From NCBI GenBank assembly GCA_963798485.1, contig CAWCTR010000023.1:1-64000 (forward strand): DNA of 64,000 nucleotides, in the 5' to 3' direction. This DNA comes from an uncultured delta proteobacterium. GTDB taxonomy: Bacteria; Desulfobacterota; Desulfomonilia; UBA1062. The position numbers and the translations under genes are program-made. A model generated the notes under the pieces. That model made no database searches, had not been told where the DNA came from, and saw nothing but the letters and a program-made list of their open reading frames with translations. This document shows positions 2,856-18,969 of this stretch, piece by piece. Each line of letters opens with the position of its first letter. The first letter of the stretch is position 1.

Positions 2856-4310
2856 ATGGCCACGACCTCTGCGTCTATCTACTACTATTATAGAGTGTTG
2901 AAAGGGTATAGCTTGAGAACGTTTATCTTTGTACCCGTTTTTTCGTTGAGCCTCCTGATTGCATTATCCGGATGCTCGAGCCTCCAGAACTATACCAAGC
3001 ATTCGGCACAGGCACGGGCATCGATAGCGGCAGGCAATTTCAATGGGGCACTCGCTACCTTTCCCGAAACAGCGGCCACGGGAAAGGATGAGGTCCTGAT
3101 AAGATTAGAACGGGGAATGATCCTTCAGGATGCAGGCCTCTTCGAGCAGAGCTCACATGAATTCGAGCTCGCAGACAGAGAGATCAGGGACTATCAGGAC
3201 AGGGCTGTGATTTCAGCAAGCAAGACCGCTTCCGAGGTAGGTACCCTGATTCTCAACGAACAGGTCATGTCCTATGAGGGAGAAGACTTCGAGATCATTC
3301 TCCTCCATGCGCTGAATGCCATGAACTACCTTATGAGGGGAGATCTCGAAGGGGCGCGGGTGGAGGTCAGGAACTCTTATGAGAGCCAAGGGCAACTCTC
3401 TGCAAAACATGAAAAAGAGATGCAAAAGGCCCAAGAAGACTCACATTCCTCGGACTGGGAACGGTCCTTTGACAAGGCCGACTCTCAGGGATATGCGCAG
3501 CTCAAGGACAAGGCCTCTACGGTTGCAAGCCTTTATCAGGACGCATTTGCGTCCTATATCTCGGCCCTTGTCTATGAGCTGGGTGGTGAGAGCGACGATG
3601 CCTATATCGATCTCAAGAAGGCATATCAGGCTTACCCGTCATGCCGGAGTATCCAGAGGGACCTTGTACGCCTGAGCGGGAAGATAGGTTTCAGGGAGGA
3701 TCAAGGGCAATGGGAGAAGAAGTTCGGAAGGTTCAAGGCTGTCCCGAAAGACGCGGTGGATGTGTTCGTGGTTTTCAGCTACGGCCTGGCGCCTTATAAA
3801 GTACCGCTGAATATTCCCATTCCCATCTCCCGCGGGTTTACCTTTGCCTCGCTGCCGGTGTATAGATTCAGCCCGTCGGACATCTCCGGAGGACTGGTCA
3901 CGGCAGGTGGCCTGAACGAGGAGACATCAACGGTGTTTGATGTTGATGCCGTGGCAGCAAGGAACCTCCTGGATGATTACCCCATAATTTTTGTGAAACA
4001 GGTTGCGAGGTCATATATCAAGGCCAAGGCCACAAGCCAGTTGGAGCATAATTTTGGCGATGCAGGTGCGATCCTTGGCATATTTGCCTCGGCGATAACG
4101 GAGCAGGCCGACCTCAGGGCCTGGTTGAGCCTACCCAAGCAGATCCAGGTGGCAAGACTCTTTGTGCCCAGGTCTTCGCCGGATATCTCCATAAGAAACC
4201 TGCCATATGGAAGTTCATCTACTGTGCAGATACCAAAGGGGGCATCACACATAATCGTATACTGCAGGGCCACGGAAAACGGCCTAGCCATATATACGAA
4301 ATCATTCTAG
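2856..4310 (+). CDS. COG3014-like TPR lipoprotein (start uncertain)
   Basis: Lipobox ALSGC, YEGEDFE..LHALNAMNY and EQADLRAWLSLP motifs; typically found upstream of ycfL-lpoB. Confidence 0.75.
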   Translation: MATTSASIYYYYRVLKGYSLRTFIFVPVFSLSLLIALSGCSSLQNYTKHSAQARASIAAGNFNGALATFPETAATGKDEVLIRLERGMILQDAGLFEQSSHEFELADREIRDYQDRAVISASKTASEVGTLILNEQVMSYEGEDFEIILLHALNAMNYLMRGDLEGARVEVRNSYESQGQLSAKHEKEMQKAQEDSHSSDWERSFDKADSQGYAQLKDKASTVASLYQDAFASYISALVYELGGESDDAYIDLKKAYQAYPSCRSIQRDLVRLSGKIGFREDQGQWEKKFGRFKAVPKDAVDVFVVFSYGLAPYKVPLNIPIPISRGFTFASLPVYRFSPSDISGGLVTAGGLNEETSTVFDVDAVAARNLLDDYPIIFVKQVARSYIKAKATSQLEHNFGDAGAILGIFASAITEQADLRAWLSLPKQIQVARLFVPRSSPDISIRNLPYGSSSTVQIPKGASHIIVYCRATENGLAIYTKSF

Positions 4311-4325
4311 ACAAGGAGGAACTCT

Positions 4326-4757
4326 ATGAGAAAAATAGGCGGATCTTTATTAATACTGACCTTATTCATGGTTGCCTGTGCGGGGACGGCCCCAAATATC
4401 CTCCACGTTCAGGCAGGCCCCATGGGTGTGAGTGCCAAACAGGTGGAGATCAACGATAAATTTCTTGAAAGAACAATGAGCTTCGGCGATGTGAGCATCA
4501 AGCCGCTTGATGGTGCAAACTCCTTTGAGGCCCAGGTGATGCTGAAAAATGAGAGCGACCGGGACTTGTCCTTCGAGTATCGCTTTATCTGGCATGATGC
4601 ACGAGGGTATGAGATCTCTGGTGTGACCTCATGGATACCTGCCGCGCTCGGGGGCAGAGAGTCAAAAGGGTTTCGCTCGGCCTCACCCGGTCCCAATGCG
4701 GCAGGGTTTAAACTTATGGTGCGTAACCCCCATCCTGTAACGGACACGGGGTCATAA
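4326..4757 (+). CDS. YcfL/DUF1425-family lipoprotein
   Basis: Lipobox MVAC, FEYRFIWHDARG motif, position before lpoB. Confidence 0.8.
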   Translation: MRKIGGSLLILTLFMVACAGTAPNILHVQAGPMGVSAKQVEINDKFLERTMSFGDVSIKPLDGANSFEAQVMLKNESDRDLSFEYRFIWHDARGYEISGVTSWIPAALGGRESKGFRSASPGPNAAGFKLMVRNPHPVTDTGS

Positions 4758-4782
4758 GAGACGAACAGGAGGAAAAAGAGAT

Positions 4783-5379
4783 ATGAAGAGATACATACTT
4801 TTCTTGAGTATTATTGCGCTGGTGTTGCTCACCTGGGGTTGCGCCAGCACGCCGGAGGTGACCTACGGCAACCCGGATCAGGTGGAGACGGTGAGCGCGG
4901 ATTTCGGCTCTACGGACCTGCAGATGATCGCCGAGAAGATGGTGAACTCATTGCTGGCAAGCCCGGTGCTTTCTTCCGGCAACCGGCCGGTGCTCTATGT
5001 ACAGCATGTTCGGAACAAGACGGATGAGCACATCGACACCGAATCCGTAACGGATAAAATAAAGGTGACATTGCTCAAGTCAGGCAAGGTCAGGTTTTCC
5101 GCCATCGGAGATGTGAAGGACGAGCTTGTTAACCAGCTCGAGTTCCAGGCAGGATCAGGTATGGTCAATCCCAAGACTGCAAAGTCCATCGGTAAGCTGG
5201 TCGGCGCCGACTATTTCCTCTATGGCGAGCTCGCCTCCATCAAGAAATCTGCCGGCCGGGTCAAGGATGTCTATTTCAAGTTTACCCTCAACCTGGTGAA
5301 TATCCAGACCGGCCTCATCGAATGGGCCGATGAAAAGGAGATCAGGAAACAGGCCGAGAAGCCTCTTTTGGGCGGCTGA
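4783..5379 (+). CDS. lpoB: Penicillin-binding protein activator LpoB-family lipoprotein
   Basis: Lipobox TWGC; FGSTDLQ, VRNKTDEHID, GKLVGADY and TGLIEWADEKEIRK motifs. Confidence 0.85.
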   Translation: MKRYILFLSIIALVLLTWGCASTPEVTYGNPDQVETVSADFGSTDLQMIAEKMVNSLLASPVLSSGNRPVLYVQHVRNKTDEHIDTESVTDKIKVTLLKSGKVRFSAIGDVKDELVNQLEFQAGSGMVNPKTAKSIGKLVGADYFLYGELASIKKSAGRVKDVYFKFTLNLVNIQTGLIEWADEKEIRKQAEKPLLGG

Positions 5380-6288: not shown

Positions 6289-6342
6289 TTTACAAAGATT
6301 AACAATCTTCCTGTAAACGAAATAGTACCCAATACGTCTTAA
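6289..6342 (+). promoter_or_regulatory. CpxR-type box (TTTAC-N5-TTAAC), 8 bp gap, then ECF-type promoter TGTAAAC-N16-CGTCTTAA
   Basis: Same architecture as at 11906-11960 and 18916-18969. Confidence 0.7.
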
Positions 6343-6376: not shown

Positions 6377-6481
6377 ATGAAAAAAACCCTAAAGGAAGAA
6401 TGGGATAACAAAAAATGAAAAAGAGACACGGCAAGGCAGGCCATGGATCATGGAGTAACGAGCAATAGTAAGACGGATCTC
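6377..6481 (+). pseudogene. Collapsed remnant of a cpxP-like gene
   Basis: 6415-6468 encodes MKKRHGKAGHGSWSNEQ, matching the C-terminus MKKNRHHKAGHGGWSKK of 18382..18882. DNA similarity continues past the stop (TAAGACGGATCTC vs TAAGACCGATCTC). Confidence 0.7.
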
Positions 6482-6511
6482 ACAATAGAAAGATCGTGAA
6501 TAACCACACAC

Positions 6512-6588
6512 AATGACTACCTCCATAAGTAACCTATACCTCCTAATTACCTCCCTCTTGGGGAGCTGCAACAGCTCCCCGATTTTTT
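6512..6588 (+). ncRNA. Candidate small RNA, copy 1 (three ACCUCC motifs plus intrinsic terminator); 5' end uncertain
   Basis: Conserved with 11978-12055; 9-bp stem GGGGAGCTG/CAGCTCCCC at 6560-6580 followed by GA-T6. Confidence 0.5.
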
Positions 6589-6628
6589 CAAAAGAAGCGG
6601 GAGCCATGTCAGCTTAACCTACATTCGT

Positions 6629-6871
6629 ACTGAGGAGGCACAAGATCCATGAAGAATCTAAAAACCGGTGATTGGCTGTTGATTGCCGGCGAAGCAGGGT
6701 TGTTCTTCATCGTCACCATAGTCGTATGGCTTGATGAATTCATGGATTTGCCAGCCCGTTTCCTCGGGGCTACACCGAAACCCTTCAGGCCTCAGGAATA
6801 CCTCGTGGAGGCTGTCTCGATTCTCATTGTTGCAGTAGTCGCTATCACTATAACTTTTATCTCACTGCGGA
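6629..6871 (+). repeat. Duplicated segment (RBS plus first ~74 codons), copy 1
   Basis: 8 nucleotide differences over the ~223-nt coding part versus 12262-12484, counted by eye. Confidence 0.95.
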
Positions 6872-8679
6872 TATCCAGGCTGTTGCAGAAGACGATTACG
6901 ACAAGGGAACTGGAGATAAACCGACTTCGCGCCTTTGCCAAGAACACGAGTATAACGCTTCAAGGCCGGGGGCTTTCCCCCGGAATGGTGGAAGGAGTGG
7001 CGCTTGTCTACCAGTCGCCGGAAAGCGAATTAATCTCCGGGGGCCAGGCCATTGCACGTAATGATGTAAAGCCTGAGATCGACCGGCTCGACGGTGCCTT
7101 GGCGGCAGCGATCTACGAGTTGGACAACACTCAGAAACAGTACGCAGGTGACATGGCAGCTGCGGAGAGTTCTTTGCTGGACGCGCACCTGGCCATGCTC
7201 AAGGACGTCGAGTTTTGGGACAAGTGCAGGCAGCGCGTCCGTGAGGACCTGGTCAAGGTCGAGCAGGCGGTTGCGGAAGAGGTCCGGGGGCTGGCAACGA
7301 TGCTGGAGGGATTGAAGCAGGAGATCATGCGGGAGCACAGCGCCGACATCCGTGATATAGGCCGTCGGGTCTTACGGAATATCAGGAACTTCGGTGAGGT
7401 GTTGCCAAACCAACTGGTGTCTCTCCCGCCAAACACGATTCTCGTCGCAAAGGAGCTCTTGCCGTCGGATTTACTGCAAATGGATCGTACAAATCTAGCA
7501 GCCTTGGTTACGGAGCGCAACGGTCCTGCCTCACATGTCGCAATCCTGGCGCGGACCAGAAACGTTCCTGCGGTCAGCGATATCAAAGATGCCGCCACGC
7601 TGCTGGCGACCGGTGACCGTTTGCTGGTGGATGCGGAGGCCGGCACCGTCACGGTGGCGCCGACCAAAGCGCAGACGGCGCGCTTCGCAGCGCGTAGGAG
7701 TCAATATACCACGCTTGAGCCCGCCGTGGCACAGGGACCTGCCCAGAAATGTGCCACGAAGGATGGTGTCCGTATCGGGTTATTTGCGAATATCAGCAGA
7801 ACAGATGAGGCGCACCTGGTTCAAGAGTATGGGCTGGATGGTGTGGGCCTGTTCCGGTCCGAGTTTCTCTTTCTCGATGTCGGGCAGCCGCCGGACTTGG
7901 AAACGCAGCTTGCGGCCTATTCTGCGGTGGCGAAAATACTCGATCCGCGCCCTATCGTTATCCGTACTATGGATCTTGGTGGGGATAAGATCCCGTGTTT
8001 CAATCGCAGTGAAAACGACCTGGCCTTGCGGACGGGCAAACGTGGCTTGGCGTTTTCCCTGACCGAAAAGACGATGTTTCGCACCCAACTTCAAGCGATC
8101 CTCCGAGCCGCGCAAGGGGGCGATGTGCGGATCATGTTTCCCATGGTAATGGGTGTGGCGGACCTGAAAGAGGCATGCAATATGGTTGACGAGGTGGTCG
8201 AAACTGAACAACTCGCCAAGCGCCCTTCCATTGGGGCCATGATCGAGACCCCCGCCGCAGTGTTTGATATACATGAGATCGTGAAGGTCGTGGATTTTGT
8301 ATCCATCGGGACCAACGATCTCGCCCACTTCATACTGGCTATGGACCGCCAATCACAAGAATCTTCCGGCGTGCTTTCGTTCTTGCATCCATGTGTGCTG
8401 CGGGCAACGGAGCAGGTGGTACGTGCTGCCCTGAATCAGGGGGTGGGCCTAACCGTGTGCGGAGAAGCGGCAGGTAATCCGGTTACTGCTTGCCTGTTGG
8501 TGGGGATGGGTGTCAGGGATCTCAGCATGAACCCGTTTTATGCCGCGCGCGTATGCCGCGTTTTACAGCAGTTGAATCTCGAACAGATGGAAGTCGCCGT
8601 TAGGGATGCCTTAAGCGTCACAACTCCGGAGGACGTCCGGCAGATCGTTGCATCGGTACTTCGCGGAACAGAAGAGTAA
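6649..8679 (+). CDS. Phosphoenolpyruvate-protein phosphotransferase (PTS enzyme I family) with a fused N-terminal two-TM domain
   Basis: Phospho-His motif GPASHVAILAR; GVGLFRSEFLF, IRTMDLGGDK, MIETPAA, SIGTNDL and VCGEAAG motifs. First ~74 aa are shared with 12262..12735. Confidence 0.92.
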   Translation: MKNLKTGDWLLIAGEAGLFFIVTIVVWLDEFMDLPARFLGATPKPFRPQEYLVEAVSILIVAVVAITITFISLRISRLLQKTITTRELEINRLRAFAKNTSITLQGRGLSPGMVEGVALVYQSPESELISGGQAIARNDVKPEIDRLDGALAAAIYELDNTQKQYAGDMAAAESSLLDAHLAMLKDVEFWDKCRQRVREDLVKVEQAVAEEVRGLATMLEGLKQEIMREHSADIRDIGRRVLRNIRNFGEVLPNQLVSLPPNTILVAKELLPSDLLQMDRTNLAALVTERNGPASHVAILARTRNVPAVSDIKDAATLLATGDRLLVDAEAGTVTVAPTKAQTARFAARRSQYTTLEPAVAQGPAQKCATKDGVRIGLFANISRTDEAHLVQEYGLDGVGLFRSEFLFLDVGQPPDLETQLAAYSAVAKILDPRPIVIRTMDLGGDKIPCFNRSENDLALRTGKRGLAFSLTEKTMFRTQLQAILRAAQGGDVRIMFPMVMGVADLKEACNMVDEVVETEQLAKRPSIGAMIETPAAVFDIHEIVKVVDFVSIGTNDLAHFILAMDRQSQESSGVLSFLHPCVLRATEQVVRAALNQGVGLTVCGEAAGNPVTACLLVGMGVRDLSMNPFYAARVCRVLQQLNLEQMEVAVRDALSVTTPEDVRQIVASVLRGTEE

Positions 8680-10366: not shown

Positions 10367-11686
10367 TTAAGAATTTCCAATCCTCCCTACGTGAGATTTT
10401 TTAATGGCCTTTTCCATTGAATTAAGCTCGGTGACCACGTCTTTGGGAAGCTGATCCTTGGCCTTAAGCGCCTGATCGATATGATACAAGCTTGCCTGAT
10501 ATTCACTGGTTTCAAAGAAGAATCTTGCATAGGAAACATGGGCCAAAGCGGGCTTTGATATCTTATCATACAGACCCCCGAGGGTGTAGTCCACACGTTG
10601 ATCCTGAGATTGGTAAGGTAGTAATACATCTATGGCTTCCTTGTACTTCCCCCCTTCCTGGAAGATATCAGCTAAGGCCATCTTGGTGGGGGCCGAGTTG
10701 GCGTAGGTTTTCAAAAGGGGGTAGGCCTCTGTTTTTCTCCCGAGAGAGTAGAGGTCAAGCCCCCTGTATTCGTTGGCAATGGGCAGGTCTATGTTCGAGA
10801 GCAAGGCAAGGGCCTGTGAGTTGTTCCCAAGTCTTGTGTGTAAAAGGCCTAAAGCGAGCGATTTGTAGGGCTCGGGCATCTGTGTCACACGGATATTGAC
10901 CTCGCCTTGCGACAGCATCAGTCCGATGACACTTGCCTCAAGAAGCCAGTAATTCTTGTCCGGTTTAGGATTGCCTGGATCAACCTTCAGAATCGCGATC
11001 CGGTTTTCCGTAAACGGGTGGGTCATGAGGTATTCCGGCATGTTCGATGATCCATTGATAGTACGGAGCCTGATGAGAAATCTCGCCATTGCCCCAGGAT
11101 CAAGTCCTGAAGCAACGAGGGTATTTTTTCCGAAGTTGTCTGCTGCATATTCATGCTCTCTGGAGTGGGCAAGCATGATGTTCTGGCTGCCCCCAACTGC
11201 TGAGGACATCACGGCTGCACCAGCCTCGGGGTTTTTTGTCGCGAGCAGGCCTCCCGCAATTATTCCCAGAATCGTGGCAATAGAGAGTGGTTTTTGAAAT
11301 TGAGAATCTTGAGGTATATGCCTCATTTGAGCATGGCCCATCTCGTGGCCAAGGACTGCTGATATTTCATCCATATCCTTTGCAACGAGAAAGATTCCAA
11401 GCTGTATGAAAATGTTACCGTCAGGGATTGTGAATGCATTTACTTCACTATCCTTGATGACATGTATCTTAAAAGAATATAACGGGTCTTTTACATGATC
11501 AGCCAAGCGGTCTGCAAGCATCTGAACCGGCCTGACGATATCCTCGTCATGAACAAGGAGATGGTTATCCTCCATCATTTTGATAAACTCATTCGCTGTC
11601 TTGGTTTCCTCTGCATATGTCATGGCCATGACAAAATGATCCGGCAGCACCATAAGCACCAGAAGAACAATCATTAGCTTTTTCAT
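10367..11686 (-). CDS. M48-family metalloprotease with TPR C-terminus (BepA/YfgC-like)
   Basis: Signal peptide; VNAFTIPDG, HEMGH, HSREHEYAAD and YLMTHP motifs; helical repeats at the C-terminus. Confidence 0.88.
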   Translation of the reverse strand: MKKLMIVLLVLMVLPDHFVMAMTYAEETKTANEFIKMMEDNHLLVHDEDIVRPVQMLADRLADHVKDPLYSFKIHVIKDSEVNAFTIPDGNIFIQLGIFLVAKDMDEISAVLGHEMGHAQMRHIPQDSQFQKPLSIATILGIIAGGLLATKNPEAGAAVMSSAVGGSQNIMLAHSREHEYAADNFGKNTLVASGLDPGAMARFLIRLRTINGSSNMPEYLMTHPFTENRIAILKVDPGNPKPDKNYWLLEASVIGLMLSQGEVNIRVTQMPEPYKSLALGLLHTRLGNNSQALALLSNIDLPIANEYRGLDLYSLGRKTEAYPLLKTYANSAPTKMALADIFQEGGKYKEAIDVLLPYQSQDQRVDYTLGGLYDKISKPALAHVSYARFFFETSEYQASLYHIDQALKAKDQLPKDVVTELNSMEKAIKKSHVGRIGNS

Positions 11687-11793
11687 GGCAATATCCTGTA
11701 CCTTCCACATTCGAATGAGCTTTATCAGCGTCCCGGCCCTTGAAGCCGTGTAAATCGTCCATCGTTCCTCTTCAGCGTCATTTCCTTTGAGTA

Positions 11794-11905: not shown

Positions 11906-11960
11906 TTTACAAATTTTTACAGTCTCATTGTAAACGATACAGTACCCCCATGCGTCTTAA
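11906..11960 (+). promoter_or_regulatory. Perfect CpxR-type box (TTTAC-N5-TTTAC), 8 bp gap, then ECF-type promoter TGTAAAC-N17-CGTCTTAA
   Basis: Read directly; same phasing as at 6289 and 18969. Confidence 0.72.
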
Positions 11961-11965
11961 CAGGC

Positions 11966-12055
11966 AACAAGGAAAAAAATGACCAATTCCATACATAACC
12001 TATACCTCCTAATTACCTCCCTCTTGGGGAGCTGCAATGGCTCCCCGATTTTTTC
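11966..12055 (+). ncRNA. Candidate ~90-nt small RNA, copy 2 (ACCUCC motifs plus terminator)
   Basis: Bounded by a promoter motif and a hairpin with T-tract at 12027-12055. Stem changes versus copy 1 (CA to TG) create G-U pairs on the + strand. Confidence 0.55.
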
Positions 12056-12241
12056 AAAAGTAACGGAGGCCATATCAACATACCCTACCATCCTGGGATT
12101 CGTTCTTGGTTTGCTCCGCTTAATGGGAAAGGATGAACATCTATATGGACTTTTAAAAGGATATATCACCTTGACAGGTTTTTTTCACAAGTTCCTGTAG
12201 GTGAACCTCATATTTACCAAGTTGTCTCTCATTATAAAAGG

Positions 12242-12484
12242 ACTGAGGAGGCATAAGACCCATGAAGAATCTAAAAACCAGTGACTGGATGTTGATTGCC
12301 GGCGAAGCAGGTTTGTTCTTCATTGTCACCATAGTCGTATGGCTTGATGAATTCATGGATTTGCCAGCCCGTTTCCTCGGGGCTACACCGAAACCCTACA
12401 GGCCTCAGGAATACCTCGTGGAGGCCGTCTCGATTCTCATTGTTGCAGTAGTCGCTATCACTATAACTTTTATCGCACTGCGGA
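12242..12484 (+). repeat. Duplicated segment (RBS plus first ~74 codons), copy 2
   Basis: Near-identical to 6629-6871. Confidence 0.95.
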
Positions 12485-12735
12485 GAGTAAGGCGGGTTGA
12501 GCGATTTTTAAGGGTCTGCGCCTGGTGCAGGAAAATATGGGTGGATGGTGAATGGGTGAGTCTTGAAGAATATGCGCTGAAGATGCATTCACTGAAATCC
12601 AGCCACGGCATCTGTGAAGAGTGCGTAACCGGGCTTGAGAAAAAGAACGGGCAAAAGAGGGCTGTAAGAATTGAAGGTCTCACGGATAAACCACCTCACC
12701 ACATGCGTATGCGGTACCAGAAGCCGTTACAATAA
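12262..12735 (+). CDS. Two-TM membrane protein with a C-terminal CAWC...SHGICxxC putative Zn-binding domain
   Basis: GAGGAGG RBS, two hydrophobic helices, VCAWCRKI..W..SHGICEEC. Confidence 0.85.
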   Translation: MKNLKTSDWMLIAGEAGLFFIVTIVVWLDEFMDLPARFLGATPKPYRPQEYLVEAVSILIVAVVAITITFIALRRVRRVERFLRVCAWCRKIWVDGEWVSLEEYALKMHSLKSSHGICEECVTGLEKKNGQKRAVRIEGLTDKPPHHMRMRYQKPLQ

Positions 12736-16064: not shown

Positions 16065-17447
16065 TTACGGCATTAATGGCAACGTTATAACAATAACTAA
16101 ACCGCCATCCGTAGCATTATGGGCACTCACGTTGCCGTGGTGGAGCCTCACGGCACGTTCCGTGATGGCTAAACCAAGTCCTGATCCCCCTGTCTTTCGA
16201 TCACGGGCATCCGACACCCGGTAGAACGGATGAAACAAATAAGGGAGTTCTGATTCTAAGACCCCATCGCCATGATCATGAACCGTGATCTCGGCAAATG
16301 GTATCGTATCGTGCATGACCCGTTGGAGCATGATATCTACATCCGTGTTCTCATGGGTATAGTGGATGGCATTGCGGACAACATTCTCAATAGCCCGTCG
16401 TAGTAATTCTTCATTGCCCGATATAATGTACTCCAGACTGTCGACATGCAGTACGAGATGGCAGGAATTTTGGGCCTCAAAATTTGCATCGACGGTGATT
16501 TTTTGAGCAAGGCGCTTTAGATCAACAGGAGATGATTGTATTCCCTCGATATCGTTTTCGATGCGAGTGAGCGTGAGCACCTGGCCGATCATCTCATTGA
16601 GTAATCTCGCTTCCCTTTCAATACGGTTTAATTGGTTTTCAGCTTCCGGACCGGTCTGCCTCCGTGCAAGTTCCAGCGCTACATTGAGCCGGGCCAGTGG
16701 CGAGCGGAGTTCATGCGAGATATCACCGAGCAATTGCCGCTGTGAGGTCATGAGCGATTCGATGCGCTCTGCCATCCGGTCAAAATCTTTTGCCAGCTCG
16801 GTGAGTTCATCCTTCCTTCTTGCAGTGTCTTTGCCGATTCTTACTGACAGCTCACCTGCGGCAAACCTTCGTGTCGCCTCCCGAAGTTTTATAAGCGGTG
16901 AGGTCAGATAACGGGCAAGCCAATAACAGACCCCTCCTGACAGGAAAAGAATGATAAATATACGGAATACCAGCAAGGTAGTGTTTCCATGAAAAGGATT
17001 GAAGGCATGTCTCGGCATGATGCCGACTACTCCGAAGACATGGCCGTTTGTTGTCTTAATGGTCATCGCCAGAAGCACCCTATCATCTAAAAATAAAGAT
17101 TCGGTTTTTCCGCTTTGCCCGGCTTGACCCAGGAGGGCCTTGGCATCAGGGGCTATCGTGCGGTTAGTGATCTCTTGATTATTCTCATCGAGCACGTAAG
17201 CATCGATCCTGGAGGAGTTTTTCAATTGGTCAGTGAGTTTCGCCAAGGCTGCATGATCGCCATGTAAATGATACTCTGCAGCCATCTGACCATACAGGGA
17301 CAAAGTAACACCGATGGTGTTCTGCAAATGGTGGATCATTGGCCCTGATTGGGTCAGACGGTCAAAACTTATCAAAGTACCGACAATAAGCGTTGTTGCA
17401 ATCCAGAACCAGAGATAGATTTTTATGAAAATGTTCAGCTTTGGCAT
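16065..17447 (-). CDS. cpxA: Sensor histidine kinase, CpxA-like
   Basis: IFIKIYLWFW N-terminus, HAMP domain, H-box LLGDISHELRSPLARL, AIENVVRNA, PFYRVSDARDRKTGGSGLGLAI. Confidence 0.85.
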   Translation of the reverse strand: MPKLNIFIKIYLWFWIATTLIVGTLISFDRLTQSGPMIHHLQNTIGVTLSLYGQMAAEYHLHGDHAALAKLTDQLKNSSRIDAYVLDENNQEITNRTIAPDAKALLGQAGQSGKTESLFLDDRVLLAMTIKTTNGHVFGVVGIMPRHAFNPFHGNTTLLVFRIFIILFLSGGVCYWLARYLTSPLIKLREATRRFAAGELSVRIGKDTARRKDELTELAKDFDRMAERIESLMTSQRQLLGDISHELRSPLARLNVALELARRQTGPEAENQLNRIEREARLLNEMIGQVLTLTRIENDIEGIQSSPVDLKRLAQKITVDANFEAQNSCHLVLHVDSLEYIISGNEELLRRAIENVVRNAIHYTHENTDVDIMLQRVMHDTIPFAEITVHDHGDGVLESELPYLFHPFYRVSDARDRKTGGSGLGLAITERAVRLHHGNVSAHNATDGGLVIVITLPLMP

Positions 17448-18190
17448 GATGGTTCCTTGGAATATTCGCCTTTTGAGTCATGGTCAGGTGGAGGTGTAGG
17501 GGTATAAAGATAGCCCACACCGCGTATTGTTTTTATTCGCTCCTTACCCGATACCTCATGACCAAGCTTTTTGCGCAGCTTGCTGATGTGTACATCTATG
17601 CTGCGGTCATACGGAGAAAGTGAGCGGCCAAGTACTGCATGCATCAACTCTTCGCGCGACACGAGTCGCCCTGACTTATGTAACAATATTTCAAGAAGAC
17701 CGAATTCGACATTGGTGAGATCAATCTTTTCACCTGAGCGGATTACTTCGCGTGTTCTCATATCCATTTTCACATCACCTATAGTCAGTTCTTCAGGTAT
17801 TTGCGGCAATGTTCTCTCTTCGGGTTCCTGTTTCACCCGCCTCAGTACGGCACGTATACGTGCGAGTAATTCGCGGGGGTTGAAGGGTTTCGGCAAATAG
17901 TCATCCGCACCCATCTCTAATCCTATGATCCTGTCTACATCATCGCCACGGGCCGTCAGCATAACAACAGGCGTACTGACTCCGGCCCGAAGACGGCGCA
18001 GTACCTCAAAGCCATTTCCAACCGGCAGCATCACATCAAGCACGATAAGGTCGTAATTACCCTCAAACACCATATTAAGCCCCACTTCTCCGTCATGGGC
18101 ACACTCGAGATGAAAACCTTCCGGAGTCAGATATTCCTTGATCAATTCACACAATTCAATGTCATCATCTATTACGAGTACATGCTCCAT
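17435..18190 (-). CDS. cpxR: OmpR-family response regulator, CpxR-like
   Basis: REC domain (LDVMLP, MLTARG, GADDYLPKPF) and winged helix (YDRSIDVHISKLRKKL, IKTIRGVGY); cpxP-R-A context and CpxR-type boxes nearby. Confidence 0.85.
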   Translation of the reverse strand: MEHVLVIDDDIELCELIKEYLTPEGFHLECAHDGEVGLNMVFEGNYDLIVLDVMLPVGNGFEVLRRLRAGVSTPVVMLTARGDDVDRIIGLEMGADDYLPKPFNPRELLARIRAVLRRVKQEPEERTLPQIPEELTIGDVKMDMRTREVIRSGEKIDLTNVEFGLLEILLHKSGRLVSREELMHAVLGRSLSPYDRSIDVHISKLRKKLGHEVSGKERIKTIRGVGYLYTPTPPPDHDSKGEYSKEPSCQS

Positions 18191-18293
18191 GGAAAACTCC
18201 CTTGTCTCGTTTCTGATTCGGATCTCCAGTATATAACGAGTATATAAATTTATAATAATAACATCAGTAAAAAAGAGTCATGATGCGCTATTC

Positions 18294-18308
18294 TTTACAA
18301 AACTTTAC
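18294..18308. promoter_or_regulatory. Perfect CpxR-type box upstream of cpxR (possible autoregulation)
   Basis: TTTAC-AAAAC-TTTAC, which reads GTAAA-N5-GTAAA on the minus strand. Confidence 0.65.
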
Positions 18309-18381
18309 ACAACTAATGATTATATTAACAGTAATTCATCGATGATGTCCCACCATCACATTCCACGGGGAGAGATCGGTC

Positions 18382-18882
18382 TTACTGGTTCTGATTGTTC
18401 TTTTTACTCCAGCCACCATGACCGGCCTTGTGGTGTCTGTTTTTCTTCATCTCCTGGGACTTCACGGATAATTGTTTAAATCGATCGGGACCGAGGATGT
18501 TTCTCACCCCGAGCATATATTGCAGATGTGCGTTGTCGAGATTCCGCTTAACCGTCTCAACCTGACTGAACTGGTTATTCAGGGCTGTTCGATCAACCGG
18601 GTTTTCCTCAAGGATGCCCTCAAGTTTTAGGTGTTCCTTTTTCAGAGAGCTTGCCAGAGCCGACATTGTGTCGTGGTTCTGAGCATACAAATTATCAAGA
18701 GCCTGCTTCTCGTCGCTTGTGAGGTTCAGCGCAATAGCCAGCTTCGGCCATTGCCACCACTTGCCCATGGGCATGTCCTTTGCCTGGACCTGCACCGCAA
18801 TAAAAAAGAAGAGAGGCAGGCATAAGAGCACGCCTGAGAGAACCCTTTTTGTTTTGGTTTGTTCTGAATGGTTACCTTTCAT
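18382..18882 (-). CDS. Periplasmic CpxP/Spy-family protein
   Basis: GAGGAGG RBS, signal peptide, GKWW, LNLTSDEK and ILGPDRF (LTxxQ-like) motifs; upstream of cpxRA. Confidence 0.8.
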   Translation of the reverse strand: MKGNHSEQTKTKRVLSGVLLCLPLFFFIAVQVQAKDMPMGKWWQWPKLAIALNLTSDEKQALDNLYAQNHDTMSALASSLKKEHLKLEGILEENPVDRTALNNQFSQVETVKRNLDNAHLQYMLGVRNILGPDRFKQLSVKSQEMKKNRHHKAGHGGWSKKNNQNQ

Positions 18883-18915: not shown

Positions 18916-18969
18916 TTAAGACGATCTTTTTGATGCATCGTTTACAAGGGAACGGTAAATATTTGTAAA
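18916..18969 (-). promoter_or_regulatory. Perfect CpxR-type box (18955-18969), 8 bp gap, then ECF-type promoter TGTAAAC-N16-CGTCTTAA facing the cpxP-like gene
   Basis: Read directly from the sequence. Confidence 0.72.

Follow-up and report, generated by a model that had tools for sequence, protein, structure and literature searches.

The window, by which we mean the whole 64,000-nucleotide stretch analyzed here, carries 2 copies of a C/U-rich element that ends in a terminator hairpin, and our best reading of the sequence is that these copies may belong to a stress sRNA family that is specific to this lineage and resembles CpxQ in its origin and the cuckoo/CcsR RNAs in its motif. On balance we lean towards the overall scenario in which tails of cpxP-like genes that lost their coding sequence (CDS), together with stand-alone units, are transcribed as stress sRNAs that pair with Shine-Dalgarno (SD) regions, the window copies being the Cpx-type members. 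That the duplicated block is a relic of a Spy/CpxP-like gene, namely its distal 3'UTR together with its Rho-independent terminator, is close to certain, and the units of the family are probably made as small RNAs; anti-SD repression in trans is put forward tentatively. The architecture is like that of base-pairing sRNAs: a stress promoter and a short body are followed by an unpaired stretch rich in C and U and by a strong hairpin and its U-tail. The C/U-rich stretch resembles the 3' end of 16S rRNA. The features discussed below are collected in Table 1.

Table 1. Positions, strands and main characteristics of the window features (R1 and R2 are the covariance models described in the text).
Feature	Position	Strand	Characteristics
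Cpx-type promoter, copy 1	6289-6341	+	TTTAC-N5-TTAAC box and TGTAAAC-N16-CGTCTTA; homologous to the G003 cpxP-like promoter (reference 54-128)
Spy/CpxP-like CDS relic, copy 1	6378-6468	+	First ~13 codons fused out of frame with the last ~17 at ~6415; TAG at 6466-6468
Proximal 3'UTR relic, copy 1	6469-6511	+	From alignment
C/U-rich tail, copy 1	6512-6559	+	CCTCC at 6520-6524, 6539-6543 and 6550-6554; matched by R1 and R2
Intrinsic terminator, copy 1	6560-6588	+	Hairpin 6560-6580, then GA and T6 (6583-6588)
PtsI-type PEP-utilising enzyme fused to an N-terminal membrane segment	6649-8679	+	Pfam and NCBIfam; TIGR01417, 406 bits
Cpx-type promoter, copy 2	11906-11959	+	TTTAC-N5-TTTAC box and TGTAAAC-N17-CGTCTTA
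Predicted primary transcript, copy 2	11966-12054	+	~89 nt; deletion junction at ~11978/9
Copy 2 elements		+	CCTCC at 12005-12009 and 12016-12020; hairpin 12026-12046; T6 12049-12054
GGAGG just 3' of the copy 2 terminator	12065-12069	+	Complementary to the tail; copy 1 counterpart GGGAG at 6599-6603
Possible own promoter of 12262-12735	12202-12227	+	TGAACC-N15-GTCTC, by eye; conserved in G003:C1 and G013
157-aa membrane protein, no known family	12262-12735	+	Paralogue of the N-terminus of 6649-8679
Cpx-like two-component system	16065-18190	-	OmpR/CpxR-type regulator 17435-18190; CpxA-like kinase 16065-17447
Intact Spy/CpxP-like gene	18382-18882	-	Pfam Metal_resist above cut-off; 3' end without tail or hairpin
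Cpx-type promoter, third copy	18919-18969	-	Before the intact cpxP-like gene

The 34-base block TAACCTATACCTCCTAATTACCTCCCTCTTGGGG is identical at 6530-6563 and 11996-12029. Identity extends past the block through AGCTGCAA and then resumes through GCTCCCCGATTTTTTCAAAAG, for a total of 63 out of 65 bases. The sole break between the copies is found at the top of the stem, with CA in copy 1 (6572-6573) and TG in copy 2 (12038-12039), and the hairpin of the 2 copies reads GGGGAGCTG-CAA-(CA/TG)GCTCCCC. With TG, the 2 top stem pairs of copy 2 become U-G and G-U, which happens on the + strand only. As in Rho-independent terminators, a 9-bp G+C-rich stem (GGGGAGCTG / CAGCTCCCC in copy 1, loop CAA) is followed on the transcribed strand by 2 bases (GA) and T6. 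The original prediction, made from the letters of the window, had described the duplicated block, the hairpin with GA-T6 and the strand-specific G-U pairs, and all of this was confirmed; the extent of the duplication had been understated. Pairwise alignment showed that the unit was duplicated as a whole, comprising the promoter-like module, the block with its tail and a paralogous downstream gene, and copy 1 has a third CCTCC. Between these modules the copies are separated by large gaps or deletions, not by point changes.

BLAST of a 95-nt query against the window's own genome (G000; 4.3 Mb, 32 contigs) gave only 2 long matches (E 7e-44 and 6e-28) and 1 additional, hairpin-only match on contig C7; the identity between the copies exceeds chance. 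Rfam at gathering thresholds found 1 tRNA and nothing else in the whole window. In E-value mode the only hits for the 2 copies were to SNORA1 (E 3.1) and HTH-XRE (E 5.4), at chance level and on the opposite strand, a miss that the original prediction had counted as support for novelty.

Related genomes point to the source of the block. The block's direct upstream neighbor in G003:C1, G013:C370, G004:C53 and G002:C22 is an intact cpxP-like CDS. In these relatives the gene has 157-168 codons, is located between a Cpx-type promoter and the block, ends 20-45 nt before the block and encodes a signal-peptide protein with LTxxQ-type motifs. At all 4 intact loci, the block is thus placed as CpxQ is, in the 3'UTR of a cpxP/spy-family gene whose terminator it uses. 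A profile of 5 cpxP-like members searched against the PDB found Spy at E 5e-8 and, more weakly, ZraP, and the LTXXQ match of the G003 protein fell just below the cut-off.

We mapped the deletions on the intact G003:C1 locus as reference, where the promoter occupies positions ~54-128 and the distal tail positions 661-738. Copy 1 is missing 182-563, while copy 2 retains 27-128 and is missing 129-660, which corresponds to the ribosome site, the entire CDS and the proximal UTR. The G002:C2 relic is missing 181-506 and the 2 relics of G003:C6 (a and b) are missing 138-509. In each case, the promoter and the distal tail were spared. Because some of the end points nearly coincide, the 4 deletions may go back to a single ancestral deletion that was eroded further in nested steps, and not to 4 independent events.

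The window also holds an intact Spy/CpxP-like gene next to a Cpx-like two-component system. With respect to G004:C53, the 3' region of this gene (18290-18420, minus strand) is shortened by ~95 nt, with loss of the C/U tail and of most of the hairpin. The genome has 4 Spy/CpxP-like paralogues in all (C23, C16, C8 and C14), 3 besides the window's, and none of them is at a match of the models described below. With their best NCBIfam matches, to CpxA, OmpR and CpxR, the 2 two-component genes beside the window's cpxP-like gene stay under the equivalog cut-offs, and "cpxP-like" and "Cpx-like" are used here as names, with no orthology meant to be claimed.

A TTTAC-N5-TTTAC-type repeat is common to the relics and to the cpxP-like gene adjoining the CpxAR-like genes, as judged by motif match. 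This direct repeat is the reverse complement of GTAAA-N5-GTAAA, which we take to be the CpxR box. A pattern scan found the full module, TTTAC-N5-TT(T/A)AC followed by TGTAAAC-N16/17-CGTCTTA, exactly 3 times in the 4.3-Mb genome, always in the window. The core TGTAAAC-N15-18-CGTCTTA occurs 10 times genome-wide against an estimated ~0.1 expected by chance and therefore is, at the level of motifs, a real promoter class with an ECF-like shape. The "CpxR/ECF promoter" originally proposed before copy 2 is reasonable at this same level, and it is found before the local Spy/CpxP-like gene as well. Starting from the Cpx-type promoter, the predicted RNA is ~242 nt for copy 1 and ~89 nt for copy 2, in agreement with the ~90 nt first suggested, the copy 2 start (11966) being placed according to the -10-like CGTCTTA. 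Seven core sites lie outside the window (C4:246101, C4:245577, C4:174132, C7:423624, C8:170615, C17:306309 and C24:37623 of G000). Four of them precede lipoprotein-like ORFs of ~610-640 aa, 3 with very similar N-termini, and 2 precede similar smaller ORFs; judging from these ORFs, the extra sites resemble a regulon under a single ECF-type sigma factor.

We then considered the distribution of the element in other genomes. R1, a covariance model built from 14 copies, gave 29 matches in 13 of the 52 genomes of the bacterial family (genus g1 9/14, g2 1/1, g11 2/5) and none in the 70 genomes of the sister family, that is 13/122 across the class. R2, a model of the 48-nt 3' module alone, matched in 13 of the 15 genomes of the genus, G000 included; E-values of both models are rough. 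The resulting 33 units all fall within one family of the class Desulfomonilia, and G000 has 5 of them, the 2 in the window plus C7:470771-470823, C17:217889-217936 and C30:46437-46484, found with R2. The newly found units do not adjoin cpxP-like genes. They are short (~56-67 nt) and stand-alone, and their 3' module consists of A(C/U)CUCC(U/C)CUU, the hairpin GGGAGCUGCAAnGGCUCCC and U6-8. No co-oriented ORF (at least 40 codons, with an SD) was found within 320 nt downstream of 17 of the 33 units, and one sigma32-type stand-alone locus keeps its synteny in 5 genomes, where it is flanked by opposite-strand genes. We rejected a REP- or MITE-like mobile repeat, considering that there are 1-5 copies per genome and that stand-alone loci are syntenic across species.

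Metagenome contigs contained 117 stretches with the bare hairpin pattern. Among the 80 listed, 69 were distinct; 21 of these had a T-run, and the motif was present at most 16 nt upstream in 15 of the 21, compared to 6 of the 48 without a T-run. These 15 stretches are evident homologues, which extend the family and are no independent test of it.

Promoters of the units were called as motif matches in all cases, with what we assume to be the sigma32 and sigma54 consensus sequences, and the sigma32 pattern was loosened after its strict version matched one site. By regular expression, sigma32-like CTTGAAA-N13-16-CCnnAT was found in 13 of the 33 units, always at a spacing that fits a 56-67-nt RNA; the Cpx-type core was found in 5 and sigma54-like TGGCAC-N5-(T/G)TGC in 1. 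The same expressions found no promoter within 320 nt in 14 units, 4 of which are intact cpxP-like 3'UTRs. By eye, sigma32-like variants were recognized in G010:C198, G015 and G050, and TGGCAC-N5-ATGCA in G011:C226 and G007:C5:72393; the rest are 3 cpxP relics without a Cpx promoter (2 behind a small membrane-protein ORF) and 2 unclear cases. The CTTGAAA-type motif also precedes hsp20a, clpB and dnaK in G000 (regular expression) and hsp20b (by eye), and an RpoH-like sigma gene is present in the genome (275 bits, below the 323 cut-off). An hsp20 gene lies directly behind this rpoH-like gene on C22. At the groES genes of G000 (C20:53249-53527 and C20:96318-96593), the place of the sigma32-like motif is taken by an inverted repeat, TTAGCACTC-N9-GAGTGCTAA, presumably of the CIRCE type.

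The original prediction saw the element as the repressive arm of the local envelope-stress regulon. The restriction to one regulon does not hold: because most members are behind sigma32-like or sigma54-like promoters, the family is not specific to the Cpx-type regulon. An undescribed stress sRNA family, as envisaged, is the best reading of this conserved, multi-copy, terminator-ended element, which has a pyrimidine-rich CUCC stretch and relatives that have their own promoters; its origin as a cpxP-like 3'UTR had been missed.

Some individual units deserve a description. L022 and L015 (G002:C2:388830 and G007:C2:141091) are cpxP-relic tails without a Cpx promoter, located ~60 nt behind a 48-codon hydrophobic ORF (MLWTIAVIL...), which we presume to be lmo0937-like. 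Both tails have lost every exact CCUCC, and at these loci the module may be the 3'UTR of another small gene. The sigma54-like unit of G000 (C30:46437-46560, minus strand) has 2 CCUCC stretches and is followed, 34 nt on, by a 490-aa ORF preceded by AAGGAGG and GGGGGAG; its G011 and G007 counterparts have no co-oriented ORF.

Conservation of the hairpin was analyzed on the 29-match alignment, in which 95.2% of the cells are paired and 7 of the 9 pairs change on both sides, figures that are supportive and not a probability, given the close kinship of the genomes and an alignment that had been fitted to the model. None of 500 shuffles reached the observed paired fraction, double-change pair count or covariation score, and in slid registers the paired fraction drops to 48-66%. 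The loop bases GCAA are invariant in 27/27 aligned units (alignment A6, columns 25-28; window 12034-12037 and 6568-6571) despite the covarying stem, and this invariance is unexplained by termination alone. Upstream of the hairpin, the CUCC-type motif nearest to it has a median predicted unpaired probability of 0.97, with at least 0.7 in 21 of the 28 distinct units; one unit has no motif. The predicted fold of copy 2 consists of an open stretch and the terminator. In the proximal 3'UTR we saw no conserved structure, as G003:C1, when compared by eye, does not retain the small hairpin of copy 1.

The best surviving alternative is that the copies are neutral relics, that is, terminators and decaying 3'UTRs of pseudogenised cpxP-like paralogues that were recently duplicated and only terminate transcription. 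Comparison of 6 close cpx-type copies (without G003:C6b, which nearly duplicates C6a) is in line with such decay, as the mean pairwise identity reached 0.96 in the hairpin, against 0.79 in the tail before it, 0.76 in the proximal UTR and 0.75 in the relic CDS, so that CDS remnants are about as conserved as the tail. Moreover, the starts of the flanking paralogous genes are also nearly identical between the window copies, and the CCUCC motifs drift. The first ACCUCCU is degenerate in G002:C2a, G003:C6a/b, G002:C2b, G007:C2 and G011:C38, with forms such as ACCGCA, UUCCUCA, AUUUCC and ACUUCC in several copies, and the second motif is degenerate in G002:C2b, G007:C2, G004 and G002:C22; at least 1 exact CCUCC is kept in 10 of the 12 cpx-type copies and none in the other 2. 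Deeper comparison shows a different picture, since in 3 divergent intact loci (G003:C1, G013 and G004:C53) conservation is highest in the tail and hairpin, with 0.79-0.87 versus 0.34-0.78 for the CDS in 30-column windows. The preferential conservation of the ACCUCC motifs that had been expected therefore holds at the depth of the family and for the terminator-proximal motif, and fails among the close copies (tail 0.79 versus relic CDS 0.75). Simple decay also does not account for stand-alone occurrences of the same module at a constant spacing from stress-type promoters of its own, for 4 different deletions that all spared promoter and tail, or for the invariant GCAA loop within a covarying stem. 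Taken together, we judge the neutral explanation unlikely.

We asked whether the element could instead act in cis on the downstream genes. In this second alternative, transcripts from the Cpx promoter mostly stop at the hairpin, regulated read-through reaches the membrane-protein gene and the anti-SD stretch may mask the downstream SD. The first ~100 codons are common to the 2 downstream genes of the window (6649-8679 and 12262-12735). A gene for the 157-aa MKNLK..DW membrane protein is found downstream of 8 of the 12 cpx-type units, which fits a leader, and it lies behind cpxP-like genes or relics in several genomes of the genus. Copy 1 is the most favorable case: the T-run ends 60 nt before the start codon at 6649, the TGAACC-N15-GTCTC is deleted and no promoter motif is seen between, and because of this arrangement its terminator may also act as a leader element. 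Copy 2 and most other units conserve this promoter-like TGAACC-N15-GTCTC between tail and gene, against an attenuator. In predicted read-through folds, the GGAGG and GGGAG that follow the terminators pair with the tail; however, shuffled sequences fold as well as the copy 2 read-through form (z = 0.22) and in the copy 1 fold the downstream SD is unpaired with the tail. An antiterminator made of the tail and the 5' arm of the hairpin was rejected by eye as too weak, with 4 bp against the 9-bp G+C stem. Further arguments against an attenuator are the entire gene present between promoter and tail at the intact loci, the convergent orientation of the nearest downstream gene in G004:C53 and G002:C22, and the units that lack a co-oriented downstream ORF (17/33). 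The 5' attenuator mentioned originally as an alternative is thus retained in part for copy 1 and abandoned for the family, which is mostly without downstream genes; as a general explanation it appears improbable, somewhat more so than neutral decay.

Small proteins encoded across the element (73 aa at 11979-12200 on the + strand; 70 and 72 aa on the - strand) are hardly credible, even if a similar 76-aa ORF is open in G002:C2, as there is no Pfam match, the 73-aa ORF crosses the strong terminator, and it is only ~30 codons long in copy 1 and G003:C1 and absent from the stand-alone units.

Envelope genes abound near the copies (window 2856-5379 and 10367-11710), including DUF1425 (4326-4757), LpoB (4783-5379) and, on the minus strand, a BepA-like M48 peptidase (10367-11710).

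Returning to the stress sRNA reading, we propose the following model. Under envelope stress, copy 2 would give a primary transcript of ~89 nt directly from its Cpx-type promoter, and copy 1 an RNA of ~242 nt, perhaps trimmed by RNase E/G as CpxQ is from the cpxP mRNA; intact mRNAs might be trimmed likewise. Hfq would bind at the hairpin and U-tail and stabilize the RNAs, and the genome does encode both cofactors, hfq (74 bits, above the cut-off) and RNase E/G (465 bits). The 16S-like CCUCC stretch would then pair with SD regions and reduce translation during stress, and the window copies would act as the envelope-stress (Cpx-type) members of the family. CCUCC is complementary to any strong SD and is therefore a generic seed without target discrimination. 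The neighboring genes with GGAGG ribosome-binding sites, listed as possible targets in the original prediction, provide no evidence for this reason.

A more far-reaching version sees in the window an mRNA turning into an sRNA gene. Successive deletions would have removed the cpxP-like CDS and kept promoter and tail, the intact cpxP-like gene would have lost its tail, and the protein and RNA arms would now occupy separate loci, with a module of 16S anti-SD mimic and GCAA loop placed behind Cpx-type/ECF-like, sigma32 and sigma54 inputs to produce generic translation dampers. We regard this version in full as rather doubtful.

Several known systems can be compared with these units. MicA, RybB and MicL are sigmaE-dependent envelope-stress sRNAs with specific 5' seeds, and MicL derives from within the 3' part of a gene. 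Like them, the window copies would be a terminator-ended small-RNA arm of an envelope-stress regulon, with an origin at a gene's 3' end as in MicL; they share no sequence relation with the 3 RNAs.

According to PMC9438474, CpxQ is an sRNA that comes from cpxP's 3'UTR in Enterobacterales, and the cpxP/CpxQ locus is best conserved at its 3' end. As with CpxQ, the element here occupies the 3' end of a gene of the Spy/CpxP family, uses the terminator of that gene and has a CpxAR-like system adjoining; the 3' end being best conserved in deep comparison and the presence of Hfq and RNase E/G genes are also shared. Unlike CpxQ, the units show no detectable sequence relation to it (as judged by the Rfam search), belong to another phylum of Desulfobacterota type and have a generic CCUCC stretch as seed. 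Furthermore, the parental CDS is gone in the window, so copy 2 would be a primary transcript and not a processing product, and the 3' module appears to serve sigma32-like and sigma54-like units as well.

The CcsR/cuckoo RNAs of Alphaproteobacteria (ar14, NfeR) are described in PMC8034643 as multi-copy stress sRNAs with anti-SD CCUCC-type motifs and RpoH-type promoters, found in the 3'UTR or 5'UTR of a small gene or stand-alone, and prone to duplication and rearrangement. The motif type, the multiple copies, the putative heat-shock-type promoters, the occurrence both in a 3'UTR and stand-alone and the tendency of the loci to be duplicated and rearranged are points in common with that description. 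In contrast to the cuckoo RNAs, whose CCUCCUCCC motif is located in hairpin loops, twice per RNA, in the same source, the motif here is linear, predicted unpaired and positioned 0-3 nt before the terminator, outside any loop. Where cuckoo RNAs have an RpoH-type promoter, 13 of our 33 units are sigma32-like and the 2 window copies carry a Cpx-type promoter instead. No ar14-type match was found by Rfam in the whole window or in the 2 copies, no DUF1127 gene (neighbor of the cuckoo CIN1 subgroup) is among the window neighbors, and the lineage is different from Alphaproteobacteria. Judged by the Rfam search, the linear motif and the lineage, the units are members of neither the CpxQ nor the cuckoo/CcsR family. 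In the part of the Desulfomonilia literature covered, titles and abstract beginnings revealed no sRNA work.

Three aspects would be new: a single 3' module apparently wired to 3 promoter classes, a deletion series that seems to leave an sRNA-sized promoter-plus-tail unit (copy 2), and a putative separation, within one genome, of a tail-less cpxP-like gene from CDS-less tails. As a practical yield, 2 covariance models and 33 loci are now available for sRNA annotation in this uncultured lineage. If the proposed reading is true, a Cpx-like envelope-stress response far outside Enterobacterales would possess a non-coding arm, and the idea that the 3' ends of cpxP/spy-type genes are a breeding ground of regulators would become testable in a second phylum. 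The loci would also represent a natural deletion series from a 3'UTR-derived sRNA to a free-standing gene, and the family would be a case of one seed-plus-terminator module reused under different stress sigma factors.
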